IMG/VR virus record: IMGVR_UViG_3300028591_000011 | Span: 41,736-105,735 of that record | Length of the DNA: 64,000 bases | Reading direction: 5' to 3' (one strand) | Origin: a virus | Taxonomy: Duplodnaviria; Caudoviricetes | Shown: positions 2,936 through 61,240 of the stretch, piece by piece | How the letters are laid out: every line of letters begins with the position of its first letter | Position numbering within the stretch: position 1 is the stretch's first letter | Translations under genes and position numbers: made by a program | Notes under the pieces: generated by a model | Told to the model about the DNA's origin: nothing | The model's input: the letters and a program-made list of their open reading frames with translations, nothing else | Database searches by the model: none

Positions 2936-4882
2936 ATGGTATACGCAAATGATCAATGGGTATAGCTCCCAGTGAGGGATCTATATGACTCGCAGATTAT
3001 GGCTATGGCTATAAACGCTGCGAAGGATATGTATGAAAAAGGACTTCAGGAAATGAAGGACTTTAATAAGGAGTATGGAGATTTTATGACGCCTATAGCT
3101 GCAGATTAGGATTGGTATAATAAGAACGTTACAGGTAGAGTAAGGAATGTTGTAAATGCCATATATGCAGCTGGTGGAGATCCACTTAGAGATCCATAGG
3201 CAAGAGCAATGATTAGTAGAGAGTTAGCAGGACTACCATACGGAGATATAGCTATGATTAAAACTAGCGCAGAAAATGCTAGAGAGTATTTGAAAGCAAG
3301 ACGATAGCTAGAAATGGCAGGGTTGTATAATCCACTTTACGCTAAATATGATGGTCCAGATTTATCTACCTATGCGACTGTTGGGGAAAACGGACAAGGT
3401 ATATGGGATAAAATGAGTCCTACTCCGTTTAACAACATATCTGCGTTTTCTAAAGATTATTTTGAAGGTTTAAAACCAAATATACGTACAGAATCTAGGA
3501 ACGGAATAACTTATCAAGTTAAAGAAATCTCGGAAAACGATTTACGTAAAATTGCAGAAGATAAGTTTAATGAACTTAAGAATACACCTTAGGGATCTTT
3601 AATGTATGCTAGATATTTGGATATCACGGGTGATGAAGATGCTGCAAGACAGATGTTTAACGATGCCATAGTTAATGCAAATTTGCGTAGGACATATCGT
3701 GAAGATAACTATGATGACAACTATCTGGAAATGGAGAAGCTTAAAATGTAGCAAGATATGAATCAATGGAAGAAACAAGTAGATTCTGCTACACTTGAAT
3801 TGCAACGTCAAGCTTTACAATTAAAAGCTCTTACAGGAACAGGTAGTGGTAAAAAAGGTACTGGTACATCTGGATTAGGGTATGATTATGAAGATTATTT
3901 TAACGAAGATGAATGGTAGCTTGCGAATAATTTAGGTGCAGCGATGGCTTCTACGGATGTTGGTAAAAGTAACGGAATATTAGATTATACGGATTTCGAC
4001 CCGTTGAGTCAAGGGGCCCTGTGGCCGCAAGCATATGAAGAAATTATAGATAGAAATTACGGAAATATTCTATCTAAGAATACTACAATTAATCGTAGTG
4101 AAAATTCTGATTATATAGCACCCTCTGATAATAAGTTAGGTTTGTCTACAGATCGTATAAATATTGGCATTACACCTGGATACGGATATAGCGATATCTC
4201 CGAAGGAATTACAGGAAAGTTCTCTTTACCGTACTCTTTTGACAAGAAGATATTTGGCGGAAAACGTCTCAGTAAAAGTTAGCTTAGCGAAATTAGAGTT
4301 GCAAATTAGAACTTTATCAATGATATATCGTAGTCATACGATCCTGCCAAGTTTGCAAAATGGTGCAATCGTAGTACAGTATCGGGAGATGATACAATGA
4401 TGAATGTTTGTAACGATGACGACTTTATAAATAGAACGCACCATACTGATGAAACAACCGCGAATAGTTATGGTATAGGATACAGTCAGGATTAGATAGA
4501 TCAAATGAAAGAATATACCGATTCGAGGAGAAAAATACTTAATAAAAATAGAGAAAATTTATACGCGAAAGGCGTAGGAAAAATATATTCTATATTAGGA
4601 GTAGACGGTGTAACTCATCTGTACGTACCAGTAAAATTTTATAAAAAGACTGGAAGAGGATCTAATGTAAGATACGAAGAACTTCCTGGTGGAATAAGTG
4701 CCTTTGATATGGGAATTTCTACTAGAGAAAATCCTAACTTTGGAATCAATGGACAAGCGGTGTCTAATTTATATATGAATCCAAATTCTGACTCAGACGT
4801 ACGTCTTGGAGGAAACATACACGCCGGAAAGTATTTGGGGTTATAGAACCCTAGTATAAAGATGAATACAGCAATACCATAA
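2936..4882 (+). CDS. Putative virion cargo protein (648 aa, TAG=Gln)
   Basis: One frame from ATG 2936 to TAA 4880-4882; all internal interruptions read are TAG. Confidence 0.7.
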
Positions 4883-37008: not shown

Positions 37009-37926
37009 CTATGCTGCTTTTGGTAGTATTATCCTACCAGTTTTTCTTTTGTGATCTCTCAAATTCGTACACACTAAGTTGTTACTCTTTTTGTGTACTT
37101 TATTTGTGATCTTTTGGGCTGTTTTTAGTAACTTTGACGTTTCTGGCTTTAGGCTGTTTACCCGATGTCCTTCTCCGTCTATATCTTTAATGTTTGCTAC
37201 TATTTTCTCTTCAAATTTGTGGTCGTCTATTTTGAATCGACCCGTAAGTGGTAACTTGTCATATATAGAGATAACGAAATCTCTTATACGTTCGGTTGCC
37301 GTCTCTCGCATTTGTTTCCATGGGATAAGATATTCGTTTTCGAACATATCTTGTTGCATTCCGTCTTCTTTTATCGGACACGGATTCTTTCTTTCCCACT
37401 TTGCTAACTTATGCTGTACAAGTTTTTCCCAGTACTCAACCTGGTTCATCTTCTTTTGAGTATAATCAGGATATTCTGACTTGTTGTCATACTTTTCTAA
37501 AGTTACATACAGTAGCTTATTACCAGCAATCCTTTCAAATACTGGTTTTAATCCACGCTTACGCTTTCTAAGACTTTTTGTCTGCTTTCCGTCTATAGGT
37601 TCCCAACTATGGTCTTGCATGTGGAACCTCATTCCAAGATTGTCAGGTTTATCAGATATACGTAAATATCTTCCATGCTGCCTTACTTCAAATGTTCCTC
37701 CGTCTGATTTAGGTAAAAATATAGTACCAAACCCTTCCTGTGCATATAGTTTATCTCTAAACTTTGTCACTTTTATAGGTTCGCTACCTTTATTATACTC
37801 AAAATCTACGAGTTCTGCCTTTCCAAACTTACGCTCGTGGTTCTTTTTATCGAACTGCTTAGAACGAGCTCTAAGGATCGCTACTTTTCTTCTACGAGCC
37901 TTAATACGAATGTTGCTATGTCCCAT
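37009..37926 (-). CDS. Highly basic hypothetical protein ending LPKAA
   Basis: 305-aa K/R-rich ORF with a TAG stop. Confidence 0.75.
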   Translation of the reverse strand: MGHSNIRIKARRRKVAILRARSKQFDKKNHERKFGKAELVDFEYNKGSEPIKVTKFRDKLYAQEGFGTIFLPKSDGGTFEVRQHGRYLRISDKPDNLGMRFHMQDHSWEPIDGKQTKSLRKRKRGLKPVFERIAGNKLLYVTLEKYDNKSEYPDYTQKKMNQVEYWEKLVQHKLAKWERKNPCPIKEDGMQQDMFENEYLIPWKQMRETATERIRDFVISIYDKLPLTGRFKIDDHKFEEKIVANIKDIDGEGHRVNSLKPETSKLLKTAQKITNKVHKKSNNLVCTNLRDHKRKTGRIILPKAA

Positions 37927-37951
37927 ATTACTTTATGTATTATGTTAAACA

Positions 37952-38695
37952 TCATGCAGCCTTCTTAAGTTGGTTAGACTTCTTCTTCTTGATCGCTACT
38001 GTCTCTGCTTTTTCACGTTTAGCGGTTATCAGACGGATTTTCTTCTGAAGTTTAGCAAACGCTTTTCCTCGATTTTTCTTTCGATTCTTTGCCGAATCTT
38101 TATTAGCCTTCTTTCTGGCAAGTTTTGCGGCAGCAGCAGCTTTCTTGTGCTCTGCCTTTGTCAGAGGTTTCTTTGCTTTCTTGGGAGGATCTTTTGCAGG
38201 CAAGACGGACGGCTGTTTCTCTGCATACGGATGTATCTTAGTCCCTTCTGGCATAAGCTCTCGTATCTTCTTCAAAAGCTCCTGATCTCCCTTTACGTAG
38301 AGATGGCTATCTGAAGACATCAACACTTCTATTTTGTTGTTCTTCAGCATTTCCATGATCATCTTCTTGTTCCCCTTCTGGAACAGTACTAATATCATGT
38401 ACTTCTTTGGTGCATCAAGCTGTTCGCACAACTTTTCAACTAATTTCTTTACGTGCTCTTCTGGAATTCCCATGCGTGCTGCTCTACGCTTCAGTGCAGC
38501 TATACGGAATTCACGATATTGCTTCTCTCGAGCTTCACGTCGCTTCTTCTTATCGACTAAGTTCTTCACTTTGCCTGTTGGCACGTTTGTCTTCTCAACA
38601 GTGTTAAGCTTCTTATAAACGAACGGGTGCTTATTTTCTGACTTAGGAGTCTGACCCTTCTGGGCAGTGTCTACCTTATAATTCTTTCTACTCAT
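37952..38695 (-). CDS. Highly basic hypothetical protein ending LKKAA
   Basis: 247-aa Lys-rich ORF with ATTATCAAA leader. Confidence 0.75.
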   Translation of the reverse strand: MSRKNYKVDTAQKGQTPKSENKHPFVYKKLNTVEKTNVPTGKVKNLVDKKKRREAREKQYREFRIAALKRRAARMGIPEEHVKKLVEKLCEQLDAPKKYMILVLFQKGNKKMIMEMLKNNKIEVLMSSDSHLYVKGDQELLKKIRELMPEGTKIHPYAEKQPSVLPAKDPPKKAKKPLTKAEHKKAAAAAKLARKKANKDSAKNRKKNRGKAFAKLQKKIRLITAKREKAETVAIKKKKSNQLKKAA

Positions 38696-38720
38696 TTTGA
38701 TAATGTTTTTAGATTGTTAA

Positions 38721-38828
38721 TTACTTGCGGTTCTTACATTTCAACATTCGAACCGCGTTTTCGTACTCTCGTTGTTCGTGAATGAGCTGCTTTGCACGCT
38801 CTTTCACGAATTTTTCAAAGTTGTCCAT
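38721..38828 (-). CDS. Small hypothetical protein (35 aa)
   Basis: MDNFEKFVKERAKQLIHEQREYENAVRMLKCKNRK fills the intergenic gap. Confidence 0.45.
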   Translation of the reverse strand: MDNFEKFVKERAKQLIHEQREYENAVRMLKCKNRK

Positions 38829-38889
38829 GTGGTTAGGAGAGGCATCGACCCTCACTAAAAGTCCTTATTACACTCTAACCTGTATATTA

Positions 38890-39432
38890 TTACGCAGCAA
38901 GATACTCCTTGATGTCCGAAATATTGTCAGACAACTCAATAGAAGACTCATTATTAAACTTCTCGAGCGCTGCATCATACTTATTTGCAGCGAGCTGCTG
39001 ATCATGAATCAGCTGTGCAATCTTAGCACTCGTAAACGTTTCCTTTTTACCAGTACCATTTGCACCCTTCTTTGCCTTCTGTGTAGGATTAATAGTAGGA
39101 ATCATCTTCAACAGAGTAATATCCTCCTTTGCCTCACATGCCGCAAAGATTGCGTAATAATTGGTTTTCTTAAATTTATCATAATCAAACGATGTAATAC
39201 CAATATTCAAATACTGGAGCATACCCTTGATTATAATACGCTTGTTTCGAAGCTGCTGTATCAGATTATACAGAGCCTTAAGATCCTTACCGGAACCAAG
39301 ACCAGCTTTAATAGCCTTAGTCGATATCACATTCTCACCACGAATAATGTGGCTATACTTAGTTATCTCAGCATCAATATTCTTCTTGATACTAATGATG
39401 TTACTTGCATTCAACTTTATTGATTTAGTCAT
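38890..39432 (-). CDS. Hypothetical protein ending YLAA
   Basis: 180-aa ORF. Confidence 0.75.
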   Translation of the reverse strand: MTKSIKLNASNIISIKKNIDAEITKYSHIIRGENVISTKAIKAGLGSGKDLKALYNLIQQLRNKRIIIKGMLQYLNIGITSFDYDKFKKTNYYAIFAACEAKEDITLLKMIPTINPTQKAKKGANGTGKKETFTSAKIAQLIHDQQLAANKYDAALEKFNNESSIELSDNISDIKEYLAA

Positions 39433-39698
39433 ATTCTATTGATTTAAGTTAGACATGTTAATTAGTTGAATTCGAACATCACTTACCAGTAATCTATGGC
39501 GGAATCACACCCCCATAAATTTAAAAGTATAGCGTATAGAGTACATGGCCCCTCGCAAAGTTCCTACTCTATACGCTATAATGTCTCTGGATATAAATTT
39601 TTCGTTTCAGTTACTTTCTTAGTTTATTCTAGCGCAGCTAACAATGTGTCACATCCCGCAGGCTGACACAAACCCCCGCAGAGGTTCGACTTAACCGC

Positions 39699-40919: not shown

Positions 40920-40929
40920 TTCTAAATCC

Positions 40930-43085
40930 TTTTTGAAATCGTCTTTGATAAACCAACGATTTAGATTAAACTTTGCCCTCTCGGCTCGGGCGTTGCCGTA
41001 AAATATATAAATGTGGATGCTTACACAGTTTTTATTTCTTCAGTTGCTGTTCTAATGGGAAGCACGTTTTTCTCGATGATTAGTTATACTTCTATATTCC
41101 TCGGCCCAATACGTTTAGGTATGGCAAATGTGAAGCTCAACTCGTATAACGAGGATTCAACGGTAGAATCATCCATGCTCATCATCATCAAGATTTGTTA
41201 AAACTTTAAATGCTGAATGTGTATATCCAAATACTAAACCTGTTTTAAGCATAATGTTTATTTTTCGTGAAACATACAACATTCATCCGTCAAAGGCTCT
41301 TATATAGGCTCAGGAAGGCTCTGAAGAGAGTTCCAGTGCTGAGATGTTTGTTGTCGAATTTAGTTTTTACCCAGGGTTTCGCCTGGCCATAAGAGTCTGT
41401 GAATATTTCTTCTTTAGTGTATTTTTGAATCTTATTCACATAAATACTTCTGATTATTTTACAAGCCTAACAGCAGTATGAACGTGCTTGTTTCCTGTTT
41501 CAATAGCTCCATAACTATTGTTTTTACGTGAGGAGTACGTTTCATTATCGGACGGCCCTATGACGTATCTGTGCGTCGGCCCTACGGCTTTGTTTTTTAT
41601 CTTGGCAAGTGCTTGCCTCATTATTTATAGTGCACGAATACTGGAGGGATTCCACCTCATACGCTATAAGATTTATCACCCACTTTACCTTCTTTGTACA
41701 CACTCCGAGACAGGGAGTAGTAGTTCCTGCATACGATTATATCACTGCGTTTAATCAGTCGGTAAAGCTGCCTTGCATCGTTTGCGTATATTGCTTCATA
41801 GTTCGGACGCACCACTTAGATTTGCTGTCTAAGCTTCTGGCCTACTATCTTGCTACTTAATTCTCAGGAACGGTTGGCACTCGATTTCCAGACGTGAGGC
41901 GCTCACAAGCGTTACAAACGGAGCCTTTCTCTTCCCCAGCTGGCGACATCAATTTTTGTTTGACATGTTAATTATTATTTGGTTTCCTCTGTATTTATTT
42001 TCATATGACTATCTTGTTTAATAGAGTTATAATGACGCAATAGTATCTAGGCTTACTACTCCTCAGGGACTATTGTTTTGAATGTAACAATCTAAACATC
42101 ATATTATCTTCATACTTGGACGCCAGCGACTTATTAATATACTGGAATATATATTCTTCGGATCGACCAGCGTTAATCTTGTTATTTGTTTGGCTGTCAA
42201 GGAGCCATCTACTACATAGCATTTCCTCTTACATGTAGTTCAATTCTATAGCGAAACCTTGCTAAAGGGCTCTACTAAAGTCTTATCAGTCTTTGAACGC
42301 GGACTCTTAACGCGACGCACATATCCATGCGTTAGGTTTTACCCCTTATCTTCCTGCATCGAAGATCCAGTCATTTTACTTTTATATACCGCATAAACGA
42401 CTAAAGCCTGGCGGTCATCTTCAACATTCTTTCCTCAGTACCCCATCCCTGGACACTCTAAGGTGTTGCAGCCTTGCATATCACCAAACTACCATTTAAT
42501 ACTCTCATAAGTTCTTTTGCAAGACACTTTTTCGAATCGAACGGCAAGGGCTTCTTCAAGGACCGTAGTTACGGTACAGCGTAGATATTTTAAACCTTCT
42601 ACTAGGTATATGAACTCAGATAGTTTTCATCCCTCAATGCTGGTTTTGGAGACCAGTGACACTAGACTAAGCAAATGAAACATCAGTATAGCTTTTGGCC
42701 TACTATACTGTTCAACTCGTGTTACGTTATACAGAACCTCTATGTTTCTCTCGAAAGGCTGCATGTCCGATACGTATTCGTTTACAACTCGTGTGCGTCT
42801 TCCTTACTAATAACCCACACTTCATGAGTCTGGCAAAGCATAAAGAACTCTGCTGGTATTTATTAGTGTTAGGGTTGAATAAACGCTGACCCTACTTACT
42901 GCAAGCTTTTCTACCATGTAGTATGTCATGGAACTTACAGCATTTCATTCTACCTTTTGGTTAGTCTATGGAGATAGACATACATATTCTCGAATCAAGT
43001 TATACTATTTCGCACCTGGGCTAATGAGACCCATCTGAAATGTGCTGACCGGATTGCCTACGGCTGGAAAGCCGGTAAAGCAGTA
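40930..43085 (-). ncRNA. ~2.1-kb candidate large structured non-coding RNA region
   Basis: No credible ORF on the sense strand in either code; dense short hairpins and internal repeats. Strand inferred from the flanking genes. Confidence 0.55.
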
Positions 43086-43088
43086 TCT

Positions 43089-43574
43089 TTACCGACCTTC
43101 CTCCGCGGAGTGATTATCGTTTTCTGATGAATATACAACCTGACCGTCGACAGTCAAGCTGATGCTGCTTCGCTTAGAGTTCTGCAGCTCACCATGAGAT
43201 TGCTCCTCACGATCTCCAGAAATTTTGTTTTTAACAGCAATACCGTCCAGCTTCCCTGGAATGGGCATAGGACAGTATACAGTATCTGTCGTACTTCTAC
43301 GCTTCTGAACGTATACATACTTTGGTTTTACCTTGAACACAGTATCCCGTAGTACTACTGTGTCCGTTTTCATACTCTCTGTACTCGTGCCCTGACTACT
43401 CTGAGTCACGAGCGGCATCCCTACGTTCTGCAATCCCTGTAAGGGCTGCAAATGCATGGGCGGGGATGCGATTGCTACCTGATGGCCTGGGAACACTGGT
43501 GCGTCCATGAGAGCCATAAAAGCTCCACATACCATAAATATAAGGCAGCAAACAACTGTTGTAAAACGTTTCAT
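43089..43574 (-). CDS. Signal-anchored/secreted hypothetical protein
   Basis: MKRFTTVVCCLIFMVCGAFMAL N-terminus; DTVVLRDTV motif common in Bacteroidota exported proteins. Confidence 0.65.
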   Translation of the reverse strand: MKRFTTVVCCLIFMVCGAFMALMDAPVFPGHQVAIASPPMHLQPLQGLQNVGMPLVTQSSQGTSTESMKTDTVVLRDTVFKVKPKYVYVQKRRSTTDTVYCPMPIPGKLDGIAVKNKISGDREEQSHGELQNSKRSSISLTVDGQVVYSSENDNHSAEEGR

Positions 43575-45503: not shown

Positions 45504-46064
45504 TTAAACTTTTAGTTGTTTTTTAAGTTTGCGTCTTGTACGCGCTAATCTGGCTTTTATTGTACCAGTGGGCATCTTTAACGCTTTACTAATCTCTTCT
45601 ACTGTCATACTATTCTCATAGAACAGTTCGAATACCTTACGAGTGGATTCTGGTAGTTCATTAAATTGATACAGAAGCTGTTCGTATGTCATCCGGTTGA
45701 CAAGGTCGTTTTCATACGATTCACTTATCAATGAAGGTGCTTGTCTAACATCTTTATCGTTAAGAGTTCCTGCATCATGTTTAATTGATCTGAGATAGTC
45801 TACAGCAGTTCGATTAGTTATTATTCTTAACCATCCTCCAAAGGAGTCGTAAGTTTTGAATGTCGAGAGGTTTTCATACACTTTTAAGAATACTTCATTA
45901 GCTACAAATTTAGCTTCATCTGTATCTTTTAAATATCCTTTAAGGATTCCTTCTACAAATGGTTTATACTTGTAGAATAGTGTATTAAAGGCTTTAATGT
46001 CACCGCCTTGTGCTCTTTTGATAAGTGCTATTTCCTTTTTTGTAATTTTAGGTACAGCTTCCAT
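45504..46064 (-). CDS. ECF-type RNA polymerase sigma-70 factor
   Basis: GDIKAFNTLF, EVFLKVY, SFGGWLRIITNRTAVDYLR (region 2); LPESTRKVFEL, EEISKALKMPTGTIKARLARTR (region 4). Confidence 0.92.
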   Translation of the reverse strand: MEAVPKITKKEIALIKRAQGGDIKAFNTLFYKYKPFVEGILKGYLKDTDEAKFVANEVFLKVYENLSTFKTYDSFGGWLRIITNRTAVDYLRSIKHDAGTLNDKDVRQAPSLISESYENDLVNRMTYEQLLYQFNELPESTRKVFELFYENSMTVEEISKALKMPTGTIKARLARTRRKLKKQLKV

Positions 46065-46161
46065 ATCAAACAAATTTAACCGGTTATTAAGGTGTCACTC
46101 CTGTAACAGACGGCGCTGTTTGTGGGCTGCCGGAATACCAATCCGGATTAGGTTGTCAGCC

Positions 46162-47118: not shown

Positions 47119-47192
47119 TGGACCCTGAGGGGCTTGAACCCACGACCTCTAGATTATGAGTCTATTGCTCTAACCAACTGAGCTAAGGGTCC
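47119..47192 (-). tRNA. tRNA with CAT anticodon, probably tRNA-Ile2 (lysidine) rather than Met
   Basis: GGACCCTTAGCTCAGTTGGTTAGAGCAATAGA-CTCATAA-TCTAGAGGTCGTGGGTTCAAGCCCCTCAGGGTCCA; the body resembles ileX-type tRNAs. Confidence 0.85.
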
Positions 47193-47196
47193 GATT

Positions 47197-47336
47197 GCTC
47201 CCACTTAGGTAGGGAGCACACCCGATCACGCCGCCTCCTTGAGGCCAGTGTAATCAACAACGTTTATGTTGCCAGTTAATTTATATCAAAGCGCTTAATG
47301 TATTTACTTCCGCTGCTGTCTAATACATTCAGGCCC
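47197..47336 (-). ncRNA. ssrA: Permuted tmRNA, coding piece (tag GNINVVDYTGLKEAA)
   Basis: 5' end GGGCCTGAATGTATTAGACAGCAGC; resume context TTAACT-GGC; tag ORF 47273-47226 ends Ala-Ala-TGA; followed by hairpin GCTCCC..GGGAGC. Confidence 0.85.
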
Positions 47337-47498
47337 TTATAGTTCATGAAAGAATGCATTAGCATTACTTTCGTAATCATCACCTCCATAATAACCTTCT
47401 ACAGTACCTAATGGAGATATTGTACCTTTTTTAAGAAGATCTTCAAAAGCTACGGCATCTTTATCGTTTACTTTATATAACACTATATATCCTTTCAT
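47337..47498 (-). CDS. 53-aa protein encoded in the tmRNA intervening segment
   Basis: ATG 47498 to TAA 47339-47337, which abuts G1 of the tmRNA coding piece. Confidence 0.6.
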   Translation of the reverse strand: MKGYIVLYKVNDKDAVAFEDLLKKGTISPLGTVEGYYGGDDYESNANAFFHEL

Positions 47499-47512
47499 GA
47501 TTTTGAATTTTG

Positions 47513-47570
47513 TGGACCTGGAGGGTATGTCTCCCTCGTCCAAACAGCTTACCTCATACACGCTAAGATT
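47513..47570 (-). ncRNA. ssrA: Permuted tmRNA, acceptor piece (5' boundary uncertain)
   Basis: TTAGCGTGTATGAGGTAAGCTGTTTGGAC-GAGGG-AGACATA-CCCTC-CAGGTCC-A. CAGGTCC pairs with GGGCCTG, giving a G3-U70 wobble and discriminator A (Ala identity). Confidence 0.85.
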
Positions 47571-47963
47571 GGAAAAGAATGAGAGGTGGTATTTCCTACT
47601 GATTTATAGAAGGCAATAGAGTGCCATTAACCTTCAACAGCAGCCTCGCCCCAGCACTCTCTGGTCTGACCCACTACGGCTCTTCTCTCATTCTTTATAT
47701 TTTTCTTAGTCCAACAGTTTATTCTGGGACACGCTAAGATTTCTTTAGAGATGAATGCTTGTGACAAATTCTGAATATAACATTGTTAATATTCTATAGC
47801 ATTCAATAGTGAACTCTACAATGATCAGTCGTAGAATTCGATTTAAGGCTATTTACAGGCTCTACAATCGCTTATTACAGCTTTTGTGGTCAGCTAATCC
47901 ACTCAAGTACATAAAAACGATTGTAGAGCTTTATTTGGCCTTCAAAACAAACAGTGATACAAT

Positions 47964-48258
47964 GGCTCTAATAGGCTCTTGTGTATATGTTTCCAGCATT
48001 CTTGATATACTGTGCAGGTTTAACTCTCATATTATTTACCCGGCTCTAATAGGCTCAAACACAGCAATGTGATCTAAATGGGATATAGTTTATTCTCCGT
48101 ATCTTCAGAGCTCGACATCCGAACTGGCTCTAATAGGCTCTTGTTCGACATGTTAATTCATGTGCCCGAGATAACCCCATCTCTCGACTTTAAAATACGT
48201 AATATTCGTAGTCCCTATGGATCCGTGATCTCATTCCTATTGGCTCTAATAGGCTCTT
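47964..48258 (-). repeat. Array of four GAGCCTATTAGAGCC repeats
   Basis: Copies at 47964, 48042, 48126 and 48242; near-identical motif precedes ATGs at 32977, 35001 and 36884. Confidence 0.85.
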
Positions 48259-48292
48259 AAGGATGGATGTCGAATTTATACGTCTGTACGGA

Positions 48293-49417: not shown

Positions 49418-49961
49418 TGTATTCTACTAGTTTTGTTTCTATTCTGTATTTTTTGCCTTCAATAATAGTATCTCGTAGATTTACAGAGAGTGTAGTCTCT
49501 TTAGGTATTTCAACCCTTGTAACACGTGGTCCCTCCAGCACCGTATCCTTCTTTTCAGCTATGTCTATACTTCGTGGGAGAGCTGTATAAATGTCGATAT
49601 TTTTTGTATATTCTGTTACTAAATCTCGTCGCTTTATACTAGGTCCACGCTTTAAACACACTGACGCTACGTTTCTGATAGTTTCATCATCCATTGACAT
49701 GAATACACTGTCAATACGAGCGTTCTCGTTTTTGCATTTCCTATACTGTAGGATTTGCGATGTGGATGTGAACTCAGGGTTGATGATGTGATCTACGTAC
49801 TCGGCGAAGAGTACGGAATCATTCTTGACAGTCTTTTCTGTTGACTGTCCAAATGGCAACAAGTGTCTGTCGCCTTTACATGATGAGCATAAGACGACAC
49901 TCACCATGACCACAAGGAGCAAAACTAAATATGCTCCGATGATTGGAATTTTTCTTTTCAT
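49410..49961 (-). CDS. Putative lipoprotein
   Basis: MKRK, hydrophobic core, then LCSSC lipobox. Confidence 0.7.
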   Translation of the reverse strand: MKRKIPIIGAYLVLLLVVMVSVVLCSSCKGDRHLLPFGQSTEKTVKNDSVLFAEYVDHIINPEFTSTSQILQYRKCKNENARIDSVFMSMDDETIRNVASVCLKRGPSIKRRDLVTEYTKNIDIYTALPRSIDIAEKKDTVLEGPRVTRVEIPKETTLSVNLRDTIIEGKKYRIETKLVEYNE

Positions 49962-50140
49962 TTTGATAATGATTTAAATGTTAATAAATTAATTTATTTT
50001 TATGGGCTAGACCCAAAAGACATTCGTCTTAAAGTGTACTATCTTCGCAGACAATACACTCGTATGCTGTTTTCACGGCCGAACGGAGGAGCAAGTAATT
50101 TCCTTTGAAAACCGATCTTCAGGGACAGCAATAACCCTTG

Positions 50141-50715
50141 TGATTCTTGCAGGACTCGAACCTGCGACCCACAGCTTCCTGCTACTCTATGTTACCATAG
50201 CCAACCCAAGAAACAAATACTACATACTCACCATAATTATGTATGCTGGATTATTTTCAGTAAGTTTCTTTTAACTGTTGTTGTAGTCTGGAATACATCT
50301 TTACCATATTGAAATTCTTGCAAGTAACAGCAACTTTTATATTCACTGGGTGTTTTTAATGACGTTCCCCACCTCGTCACATACATTACCGTAATTTCAA
50401 CTTAGGTATCTCCTATATACTATCTACACATTTATGAGGCTAACTTGTTTTCCCAATCTTGACAAGCATTTGAAGGCATAGTCTCTCAATTTAGCACGGT
50501 ATTATCCTTACACATTATTGGTTAGTGTGCAAATTATAATGTAAGTGCTTAAAGCTAAATGATAACGCTTCCCTTAAATTTGCTTGGGGCACTTATCTTA
50601 CTTACATATTTCAAAGGACTTCCACCGTTTTAGGGAGATTCTACCATGGGATTTCTCGCCATAGCATCCAATTTTCATAGAAGGCTGTTGCTCTATCCAA
50701 CTGAGCTAAAGAACC
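50141..50715 (-). tRNA. tRNA-Arg(TCT) interrupted by a group I intron
   Basis: Exon 1 50715-50679 GGTTCTTTAGCTCAGTTGGATAGAGCAACAGCCTTCT and exon 2 50177-50141 AAGCTGTGGGTCGCAGGTTCGAGTCCTGCAAGAATCA join into a canonical cloverleaf. Confidence 0.9.
50178..50678 (-). mobile_element. Group I self-splicing intron (501 nt, no evident homing endonuclease ORF)
   Basis: 5' splice site after U; terminal G; P-like AAAACGGTGGAAGTCC, Q-like ATAACCGTGCTAAA, R-like GTAGATAGTATATAGG, S-like AAGATGTATTCCAGAC. Confidence 0.85.
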
Positions 50716-50788
50716 AATAACTCCCTACTCGACAAACCCTGTCTATTTCGCGCTGAGGGTGTCCCACCAAACCTCCTCGGGAGTATAT

Positions 50789-51103
50789 TTATCTAATTCG
50801 TAGTGGAAAGCACGACAAATCAGATTTACGCATACATTTTGTACAAGCTTCACTTTTACAATAACCACATGGTCTGAAGTGATTCATTGTTGCACAAAAT
50901 ACACATCTGTGAAATTGTATACATTTGTATCTATATAAAGATCGCATTCTGTATACTTTTCCATCAATCGTGATCAGTCTTCCAGCTGTCCACGTTCTTT
51001 GTTTTTCTTTTGCTTTTCTTCTTCTTACTTTTTTTCTTAAATTTCTTTTTCTACAACCAGTAAGTTTTTTGAAGCAGCAATTTTCTTTATTATAGTTTAT
51101 CAT
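50789..51103 (-). CDS. Small Cys-rich basic protein
   Basis: GRLITIDGKVYR followed by several CxxC motifs. Confidence 0.6.
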   Translation of the reverse strand: MINYNKENCCFKKLTGCRKRNLRKKVRRRKAKEKQRTWTAGRLITIDGKVYRMRSLYRYKCIQFHRCVFCATMNHFRPCGYCKSEACTKCMRKSDLSCFPLRIR

Positions 51104-51879: not shown

Positions 51880-52301
51880 AACAGTGGTTGTCTATGTATT
51901 AGACGGTCAATGAATATCCTTACGATCTTTTCTCTCAGTAGCGGTTGCATACCGATGTGTTCAACAGTACACCACGCTTTCTTCCACCCATCTTGGGTGT
52001 AGAACATTACAACTTCAATTTGGTTGTTTAGAAGTTTTTTCCACGCTGGAGTAGCGATATGAGATATCACTATATCTCCGTGGAGTATTCTCTCCATAGC
52101 ATCGTTCGATACGCATACTTGCGCAGTTTTTGGCTTGTATACGTATTTTCTGCCTAGCATAATAACATTTTTTCCTCCAATATATTTTGCATATACATGG
52201 GAGGAATTAGCTACTTCTACTAGCATCCATTCGCCTATTGGTATTCCACTGATTGTCTTTTTGCGTATCAGTGTTCCTTTTGAAAATTCTCGTTTGCTCA
52301 T
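51876..52301 (-). CDS. Hypothetical protein
   Basis: 141-aa ORF with ATGA overlaps. Confidence 0.7.
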   Translation of the reverse strand: MSKREFSKGTLIRKKTISGIPIGEWMLVEVANSSHVYAKYIGGKNVIMLGRKYVYKPKTAQVCVSNDAMERILHGDIVISHIATPAWKKLLNNQIEVVMFYTQDGWKKAWCTVEHIGMQPLLREKIVRIFIDRLIHRQPLL

Positions 52302-58973: not shown

Positions 58974-59001
58974 TAACGAATAAAAATATGCAAAAGTTGC
59001 A
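58974..59001 (-). promoter_or_regulatory. ECF-type promoter TGCAAC-N17-CGTTA (leftward, lysis block)
   Basis: Matches the generic ECF -35 AAC / -10 CGT pattern and mirrors the rightward copy. Confidence 0.6.
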
Positions 59002-59025
59002 AAAAATATTAAAAAATTATACTGA

Positions 59026-59054
59026 TGCAACCAAATTGCACCAATCTTCCGTTA
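59026..59054 (+). promoter_or_regulatory. ECF-type promoter TGCAAC-N18-CGTTA (rightward)
   Basis: Same two boxes, 33 nt before ATG 59088. Confidence 0.6.
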
Positions 59055-61076: not shown

Positions 61077-61151
61077 TGCTCCATGGTGTAGCGGTAGCAC
61101 GGGAGGCTCTAACCCTCCAGGTCCGGGTTCGACTCGATGGTGGGGCGACCA
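61077..61151 (+). tRNA. Amber suppressor tRNA (anticodon CTA), Gln-type body
   Basis: TGCTCCA-TGGTGTAGCGGTAGCAC-G-GGAGG-CTCTAAC-CCTCC...TGGGGCG-A-CCA; anticodon at 61109-61111; irregular T-stem. Confidence 0.88.
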
Positions 61152-61153
61152 AT

Positions 61154-61240
61154 AACGAAAGTAGCTCAAAGTGGTAGAGCGGCGACACTTATAGACAGTC
61201 AATCGTATGCTGCGGGTTCAAGTCCCGTCTTTCGTTACCA
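61154..61240 (+). tRNA. Atypical tRNA with 8-bp acceptor and expanded anticodon loop (identity undetermined)
   Basis: AACGAAAG/CTTTCGTT-A-CCA, normal D and T arms, anticodon region GCGA-CACTTATAGACAGTCAA-TCGT. Confidence 0.65.

Follow-up and report, generated by a model that had tools for sequence, protein, structure and literature searches.

In this work, we focus on a stretch of 64,000 nucleotides (nt) of phage DNA, which we will call the window (IMG/VR record IMGVR_UViG_3300028591_000011, positions 41,736 to 105,735), and particularly on an element of about 2.1 kb that lies on its minus strand. We find that this element, from 40921 to 43045, is probably the gene, or a tightly packed cluster of genes, for a structured non-coding RNA (ncRNA) of very large size that is specific to the phage family Suoliviridae. 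The window was placed by blastn among the crAss-like phages, in the subfamily Oafivirinae of the Suoliviridae (the 'delta' group), and the RNA libraries that hold its sequence come from the sheep and bovine gut. The element belongs to a minus-strand early block, extending from ~27.7 to 60 kb, that is written in the standard code. An initial annotation, made from the letters of the window, had put forward a new large RNA or RNP scaffold, or a tandem set of RNAs, at this place, and the proposal of a new RNA is supported: the element is conserved, its helices covary, it carries no coding signal and no Rfam family matches it.

An element without coding capacity

The element cannot encode a protein. 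Between 40930 and 43085, the longest open reading frame (ORF) under translation table 11 on either strand has 83 amino acids (aa), and TAA, TAG and TGA are numerous in all six frames of the element. The lack of any ORF, already claimed by the initial annotation, extends to every reassignment of a single stop codon over 40921-43045, including the TAG recoding that the phage itself uses: because all three stops are common in the six frames, turning TAG or any other one of them into a sense codon opens no frame. A protein gene under an alternative code (TAG as glutamine, or any single stop as sense) was therefore rejected, as there is neither an open frame nor a codon signal. The element does not contain any ORF for a homing endonuclease or a maturase either.

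The way in which the copies of the element differ from each other is also that of non-coding DNA. In 127 pairs that are 70-93% identical, only 413 of the 4334 indels (9.5%) are multiples of three, while no indel at all occurs in 112 pairs of the control, a coding stretch of 1.9 kb next to the element. Mismatches show no codon periodicity in the element (.25/.33/.43 over the three phases), against a strong bias to the third position in the coding control (.16/.20/.64).

Conservation of the element and of its gene slot

Since a search with the 176-aa protein encoded just upstream, used alone, found no relative, a DNA pattern was used to fetch them. The pattern was TATTCGTGCACTATAAA, and the 14-mer TATTCGTGCACTAT retrieved IMG/VR contigs. 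A hidden Markov model of the gap matched 68 IMG/VR viral contigs with nhmmer, 48 of them full length, at 475-1700 bits. In addition, blastn shows that seven GenBank genomes of Oafivirinae have a gap of 2.0-2.2 kb in the same slot, which is either unannotated or filled with tiny ORFs. Five further copies are found in contigs binned into bacterial metagenome-assembled genomes, and for two of these contigs, of ~101 kb, the bin is one of Segatella copri. S. copri is thereby hinted at as the host, but only weakly, because phage contigs are often mis-binned. The copy of the window is itself a divergent one, with at most 64% identity to any fetched copy.

The gene slot is identical in every locus with readable flanks. 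It runs from a gene for an extracytoplasmic function (ECF) sigma factor through those of a small membrane protein, a protein of ~450-500 aa and a small protein to the element, which is followed by two genes for ~200-aa proteins, with the DNA polymerase beyond. In the relatives, an ORF of 118-166 aa ends where the element starts, and the proteins encoded after it have 195-224, 175-205 (mostly 192-200) and ~181 aa. A total length of 2.0-2.4 kb and the order of the conserved blocks are kept in 48 of the 48 full-length copies, without loss or shuffling of domains. The two marks by which the Suoliviridae element is recognised, collinear homology over the full length and this same gene slot, are both present in the window.

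The element also reaches beyond the Oafivirinae. In the Loutivirinae phage cr56_1, the covariance model of one of its domains (R1, see below) has a match with an E value of 3.5e-7 inside a syntenic ORF-free gap of 2152 nt. The Uncouvirinae phage cr114_1 has a syntenic ORF-free gap of 1849 nt in which only weak collinear matches are found; a match of R1 inside a giant coding sequence of this phage proved spurious. Two genomes of Steigviridae have neither the sigma-factor gene nor a match to R1. The element looks family-wide in the Suoliviridae, and looks to have diverged almost past detection in their third subfamily, the Uncouvirinae.

In five of six divergence classes, the element is more identical between phages than its flanks are (for example 0.83 versus 0.57), and where the flanks are at least 97% identical, the two are about equal (0.973 for the element and 0.982 for the flank). 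The flanking 455-aa protein shares only 24-33% amino-acid identity with its relatives. As judged from these alignments, the element is evolving more slowly than the adjacent genes.

In public records, the homologous gap can carry gene calls. It is annotated with 10-12 tiny ORFs of mixed polarity in PP511876 (3381-5389), and in two other loci (L005 and L006, ~3834-4349) with an antisense ORF of 160-168 aa, which in cr7_1 is open only under TAG recoding. The small ORFs annotated over the homologous gap are likely to be annotation artefacts.

Covariation and RNA structure

The initial annotation had described the region as hairpin-dense. The four stems that it named are all found in the sequence, but the description as such is not borne out by folding energy: the minimum free energy z-scores of the three thirds of the element are -0.36, +0.47 and -2.91, against -2.71 for a coding control. 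As the energy of the single sequence is not above chance, the evidence for structure is comparative.

The RNAalifold consensus of 21 non-redundant copies comprises 54 helices and 264 pairs. At least three pairs have changed on both sides in 31 of these 54 helices, and canonical pairing in most of them is 85-95%, versus 20-50% with shifted partners. In every segment of 500 alignment columns, the consensus energy lies 6-14 standard deviations below that of column-shuffled alignments, and the energy of the sense strand equals or beats that of the antisense strand. A control on stacks (at least 4 bp, at least 90% canonical, at least three covarying pairs) yielded 12 antiparallel versus 0 parallel ones. 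The choice of alignment matters here, in that default MAFFT alignments mask many helices in the variable parts; RNAalifold gave few pairs on alignments A1 and A2. Compensatory changes being above alignment-preserving controls, the element is, at the level of comparative sequence analysis, a conserved structured ncRNA.

This can be followed in detail in D3a, a closed multibranch domain. On alignment A5 (10 sequences), 94.1% of its cells are paired versus 28-51% when the partners are slid, and 16 pairs are changed on both sides, with 0 of 500 shuffles as high. A covariance model of the domain (R1) found 78 copies and gives that of the window a score of 154.8 bits. On the Infernal alignment A6 (67 distinct sequences), which is fitted to the model and hence biased towards it, but with which the MAFFT-based counts agree, 96.1% of the cells are paired versus 28-52% slid. 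There, 24 of the 41 pairs are changed on both sides, with 271 double-sided cells versus 19-32 slid, and again 0 of 500 shuffles reach the observed value. Conserved G-U pairs are frequent in D3a on A6 (e.g., UG:52, GU:56, UG:39). Because such pairs would be A-C mismatches on the opposite strand, the sense strand is the minus strand.

Both ends of the element are covarying hairpins. The outer stem of the 5' one is GCAC/GTGC in the window and GTAC/GTAC, GAGC/GCTC, GCGC/GCGC or GCATTC/GAATGC in relatives; both sides have changed in 4 of 5 pairs. Helix 2 of the 3' one is 97.5% paired, with double-sided changes in 6 of its 9 pairs. By their covariation, these 5'-most and 3'-most hairpins set the apparent boundaries of the element. 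Another hairpin resembles the T-arm of a tRNA, and relatives keep its 7-nt loop on altered stems (GACTG-TTCGATT-CAGTC, GACG-TTCGATT-CGTC). Eleven blocks of 8-17 nt are conserved at 90% or more along the element. One of them, GAGTGCCAACCG, is predicted to pair with the conserved GGCAGCTT, neither side of which varies. As the blocks that they join do not vary, the long-range helices are predicted only. The coordinates of these features and of others discussed below are collected in Table 1.

Table 1. Coordinates of the element, its parts and other features of the window (positions in the window, except for the last row)
Feature	Position	Strand	Remarks
Whole conserved structured non-coding element, ~2125 nt	40921..43045	-	nhmmer, indel and codon-phase tests, RNAalifold
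5'-terminal hairpin	43012..43045	-	covarying stem (alignment A8); encloses conserved GGTCTCATTAGCC
17-mer, first copy, ATAGTAGGCCARAAGCT	42690..42706	-	falls largely within the CAGTATAG/CTATACTG hairpin loop
tRNA T-arm-like hairpin, conserved 7-nt loop	42530..42546	-	block GTTCGATT; 4 of 5 pairs covary
Conserved block GAGTGCCAACCG	41871..41882	-	at least 90% identity per column; identical in 21 of 21 A1 sequences
17-mer, second copy	41832..41848	-	GCTTAGA/TCTAAGT hairpin: 5' arm overlapped by the 3' end of this copy
Domain D3a, closed multibranch, 8 helices, 41 pairs	41670..41956	-	closing helix TGTC-CC/GG-GACA (GATA in the window)
Longest conserved block, TATTCGTGCACTATAAA	41624..41640	-	contains the palindrome GTGCAC
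3'-terminal hairpin	40921..40965	-	covers the AAAAAGGA tract; 3' arm ends 2 nt before ATG (40919)
Upstream flanking gene, 176 aa	43089..43619	-	hydrophobic N-terminal segment; stop codon 44 nt upstream of the element
Downstream flanking gene, 200 aa	40317..40919	-	no known family; starts 2 nt past the 3' hairpin
ECF sigma factor gene	45504-46073
Late ORF, 5524 aa	4894-21468	+	95 in-frame TAGs
Late ORF, 1896 aa	21461-27151	+	31 in-frame TAGs
Suppressor tRNA, anticodon CTA	61077-61151		adjoins the TAG-recoded late genes
Permuted tmRNA in relatives	L097:186-411; L034:8687-8922; L098:750-929; L017:9186-9407		Rfam RF04321

Composition, repeats and neighbouring genes

The GC content of the region is 0.397, which falls within the range of the surrounding bins (0.31-0.49), and the initial annotation was right that the region is not AT-rich. 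It also reported repeats, and these are there: the two copies of a 17-mer match at 16 of 17 positions (rough chance probability ~0.007), and ACACGAGTTG occurs twice on the minus strand. Conservation of the second copy of the 17-mer is confined to the clade of the window. The other short dispersed repeats of the element look like chance matches. The element contains no tandem repeats and no iterons, and cumulative GC skew shows no turn at it. A profile search revealed no internal duplication among its four quarters; as these are mutually unrelated, the element is not an array of repeated units. Just upstream of it, overlapping the stop of the 176-aa gene, is a 15-bp inverted repeat (43066-43101, 87% complementary, 6-nt loop), which may act as a terminator or serve in processing as a hairpin.

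Of the 10 neighbouring proteins, 9 have no family in Pfam or PHROGs, and a search of the ESM Atlas with the 455-aa protein was negative. AlphaFold2 models of the two proteins encoded downstream (200 aa, pLDDT 80; 201 aa, pLDDT 69) have no Foldseek match in the PDB, and for this reason the idea of a ribonucleoprotein (RNP), raised by the initial annotation, is unsupported by the neighbours. The same annotation stated that the region precedes genes for basic proteins. This is true of the third to fifth genes downstream (isoelectric points of 9.5, 10.4 and 9.9), but not of the two that directly follow the element (6.2 and 7.0).

Relation to known RNAs

In the whole window, cmscan against Rfam 15 at the gathering threshold identifies tRNAs only. 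When E values up to 10 are allowed, the region of the element gives a single chance match to a snoRNA, and nothing is found inside the element of 14 relatives at the gathering threshold. Membership of the GOLLD, ROOL, OLE, raiA or HEARO families was rejected for want of a covariance-model match, and that of the group I and II introns because there is neither an Rfam model match nor any flanking exon of an interrupted gene. This search had been suggested by the initial annotation, and its outcome is in keeping with a new RNA. Our literature searches found no description of the element.

The known RNAs closest to it in kind are OLE, GOLLD and ROOL, all of them large and ornate but unrelated to it in sequence. 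OLE is an RNP RNA of ~600 nt from Firmicutes, with OapA, OapB and OapC as its partners. It resembles the element as a large, highly conserved structured RNA encoded among protein genes and co-transcribed with them, as the element would be; it differs in being bacterial and in having known protein partners, and the Rfam search did not connect the two. The sizes of GOLLD and ROOL are roughly 0.6-0.8 kb. Like the element, they are phage-borne, protein-free and conserved by covariation, with many helices and GNRA-type loops, and the phage studied here has tRNA genes. Unlike it, they are only about a third of 2.1 kb (by these approximate sizes), and their models do not match. The element also lies inside a Crassvirales early/middle operon and not beside a tRNA cluster, unlike GOLLD and ROOL. 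Cryo-electron microscopy (cryo-EM) has shown these two to be RNA-only multimers (bioRxiv 10.1101/2024.12.08.627333).

The closest analogue known from experiment is found among the crAss-like phages themselves: Cellulophaga phage phi14:2 produces two abundant long non-coding transcripts, which appear early and persist (Drobysheva et al., bioRxiv 10.1101/2020.03.07.982082), and its gene-free region is transcribed above most genes (bioRxiv 10.1101/2020.03.07.982082). This early region extends over ~1.7 kb (NC_021806, 2905-4601), with a GC content of 0.29; the small-ORF annotations that it carried were all removed in 2020. The likeness to the element is that of gene-free early-region DNA in a crAss-like phage. 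The differences are that phi14:2 belongs to the Steigviridae, that the gene neighbourhood is another one and that no conserved structure has been reported there. As a homologue, the region (g004-g006) was rejected, since nhmmer and R1 gave only noise. Protein-free regions have also been noted in crAss-like genomes, mainly of the Zeta group, and left uninterpreted (Yutin et al. 2021, PMC7886860); they differ from the present case in that neither an RNA interpretation nor homology nor structure was offered for them (PMC7886860).

Presence in RNA libraries and weighing of the interpretations

Contigs assembled from four metatranscriptome runs, belonging to four studies of the ruminant gut, cover the element. 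In each of the four libraries, their summed depth over 41414-42615 exceeds the depth on the flanking genes by a factor of 5-10, but it pools related phages and possibly library DNA, and it shows presence, not strand, ends or stability. This limit weighs against a very large structured ncRNA, and so do several other points. A scan of the element for sigma-70 promoters and intrinsic terminators gave results at chance level. Two of the three thirds of the window's own element fold no better than shuffled sequence, and all strongly covarying helices are local, with a span of at most 108 columns. The two ~200-aa neighbours have no recognisable fold, and there is no link to a partner protein. Any mechanism of scaffolding or self-assembly is, finally, drawn from analogy alone. 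The motif TGCAAC-N15-19-CGTNA, which resembles an ECF promoter, is absent near the element.

It is quite possible, if not what we would favour, that we are dealing with a string of several independent RNAs or domains of ~150-400 nt, processed from the operon transcript and having separate roles. The local nature of the covarying helices, the closing helix that D3a has of its own, the lack of sequence similarity between the four quarters and the fact that RNA-library contigs break within the element all agree with this. However, such a string would have to account for a length and a block order that are constant in all 48 full-length copies, and for the lack of internal terminators, promoters or spacer-like AT-rich gaps; the helices that RNAalifold draws between distant conserved blocks, although predicted only, would also argue for a single unit. 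Alternatively, the element could be a giant structured intercistronic leader, acting in cis on the stability, the processing or the translation of the operon mRNA, notably for the downstream 200-aa genes. It has the same strand as its neighbours, it stands within the operon with no promoter or terminator found, and its covarying 3' hairpin over the AAAAAGGA tract ends 2 nt before the ATG. We nonetheless consider this unlikely, as known leaders measure tens to hundreds of nt and not 2.1 kb, the element is conserved more strongly than the genes that it would regulate, and conserved blocks and multibranch domains are found up to 2 kb away from the start codon.

Much less probable still is that the element consists of one or more self-splicing introns, in a degenerate or atypical form, or of other ribozymes missed by the Rfam models. 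Group I introns are known to abound in the delta-group crAss-like phages (Yutin 2021, PMC7886860), and the failure of Rfam on the element is weak evidence against an intron, because Rfam also failed to name an insert of ~500 nt that splits a tRNA gene in the same window (see below). On the other hand, the flanking ORFs are separate genes, with a stop codon of their own and a conserved start, so there are no exons to join. Added to this are the absence of a homing-endonuclease or maturase ORF, the absence of intron models from the matches at E values up to 10 in the window and at the gathering threshold in the 14 relatives, and a position that is fixed in all genomes, unlike that of a mobile intron. 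As for an element acting at the DNA level (an origin of replication, for instance, or a site used in packaging or recombination), the presence of a large non-coding stretch upstream of replication genes would fit, but we regard it as the least probable of all: the compensatory changes preserve Watson-Crick and G-U pairing for just one of the strands, iterons, tandem repeats, AT-richness and a turn of the GC skew are all lacking, and the sequence is present in RNA libraries.

Other features of the phage

The plus-strand late genes of the window (1-27151 and from 61943) are open only with TAG as a sense codon. Next to the suppressor tRNA that adjoins them is a second tRNA of 87 nt, immediately after it (61154-61240, plus strand), which ARAGORN calls as Tyr with anticodon ATA. 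This call is odd, and the gene may encode a further suppressor tRNA or one that carries an intron.

A tRNA gene on the minus strand (50141-50715) is interrupted in its anticodon loop by the insert of ~500 nt mentioned above. Its 5' half begins at 50715, its T-arm and acceptor end at 50141, and the joined halves fold as a tRNA. Many variant joints replace loops within the insert, and in each of the four RNA libraries the summed contig depth over 49830-51000 is 50-300x the depth elsewhere in the window. Although Rfam does not name it, the insert is probably an intron of group I type, as judged from the U at the end of the exon and the G at its own end.

In relatives, a circularly permuted transfer-messenger RNA (tmRNA; Rfam RF04321, 49-68 bits) is found ~4-5 kb upstream of the element. 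The equivalent place in the window is an ORF-poor gap after a tRNA-Met (~47190-48290), in which neither Rfam nor ARAGORN has a match. The ECF-promoter-like motif has 4 copies in the window, versus 0.39 expected, at 58974-59054, 51920-51949 and 1435-1461; near 59 kb, at the divergent junction, two of them stand back to back. Finally, the stretch 37207-39610 has no contig cover in three of the four RNA libraries, though both of its sides are covered; it may be strain-variable or silent.

A probable large RNA in the biology of the Suoliviridae

If the element is a very large structured ncRNA, as we believe, it would be transcribed with the early/middle operon that shares its strand and would work as RNA in the infected cell. 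The fold of the RNA would comprise several closed domains, each with multiple helices and 150-400 nt long, and these appear to bear motifs that are usual in large RNAs with a tertiary fold, namely GNRA-type loops, the T-loop-like hairpin and conserved single-stranded blocks. By analogy with GOLLD, ROOL or OLE, we tentatively suggest that it could be an abundant and stable architectural RNA, either self-assembling or acting as a protein-binding scaffold. The GUGCAC palindrome is a candidate for RNA-RNA contact, and the covarying 3' hairpin at the start codon of the next gene might additionally be a processing site or a translational gate. It is somewhat more doubtful that the element gives a single RNA of ~2.1 kb, its architecture being defined at the tertiary or quaternary level, that would be a self-assembling scaffold or the core of an RNP needed for infection across the family. 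Such an RNA might organise the transcription or translation of the phage, or sequester a host factor.

To our knowledge, structured RNAs of more than 1 kb other than rRNA are almost without example in bacteria and phages. The element is about three times as large as GOLLD or ROOL, going by their approximate sizes, and a single RNA of 2.1 kb, if this is what it is, would exceed in size every other structured non-ribosomal RNA known from viruses of bacteria. The element offers a target for cryo-EM and genetics, as its coordinates are defined and a domain model is available together with more than 70 homologues. It explains a recurrent 'annotation hole' of Suoliviridae genomes, which has been filled with spurious small ORFs (e.g., in PP511876). 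The phages that carry it form one of the most abundant families in the mammalian gut, and in them the constraint on this element is stronger than that on the adjacent proteins.

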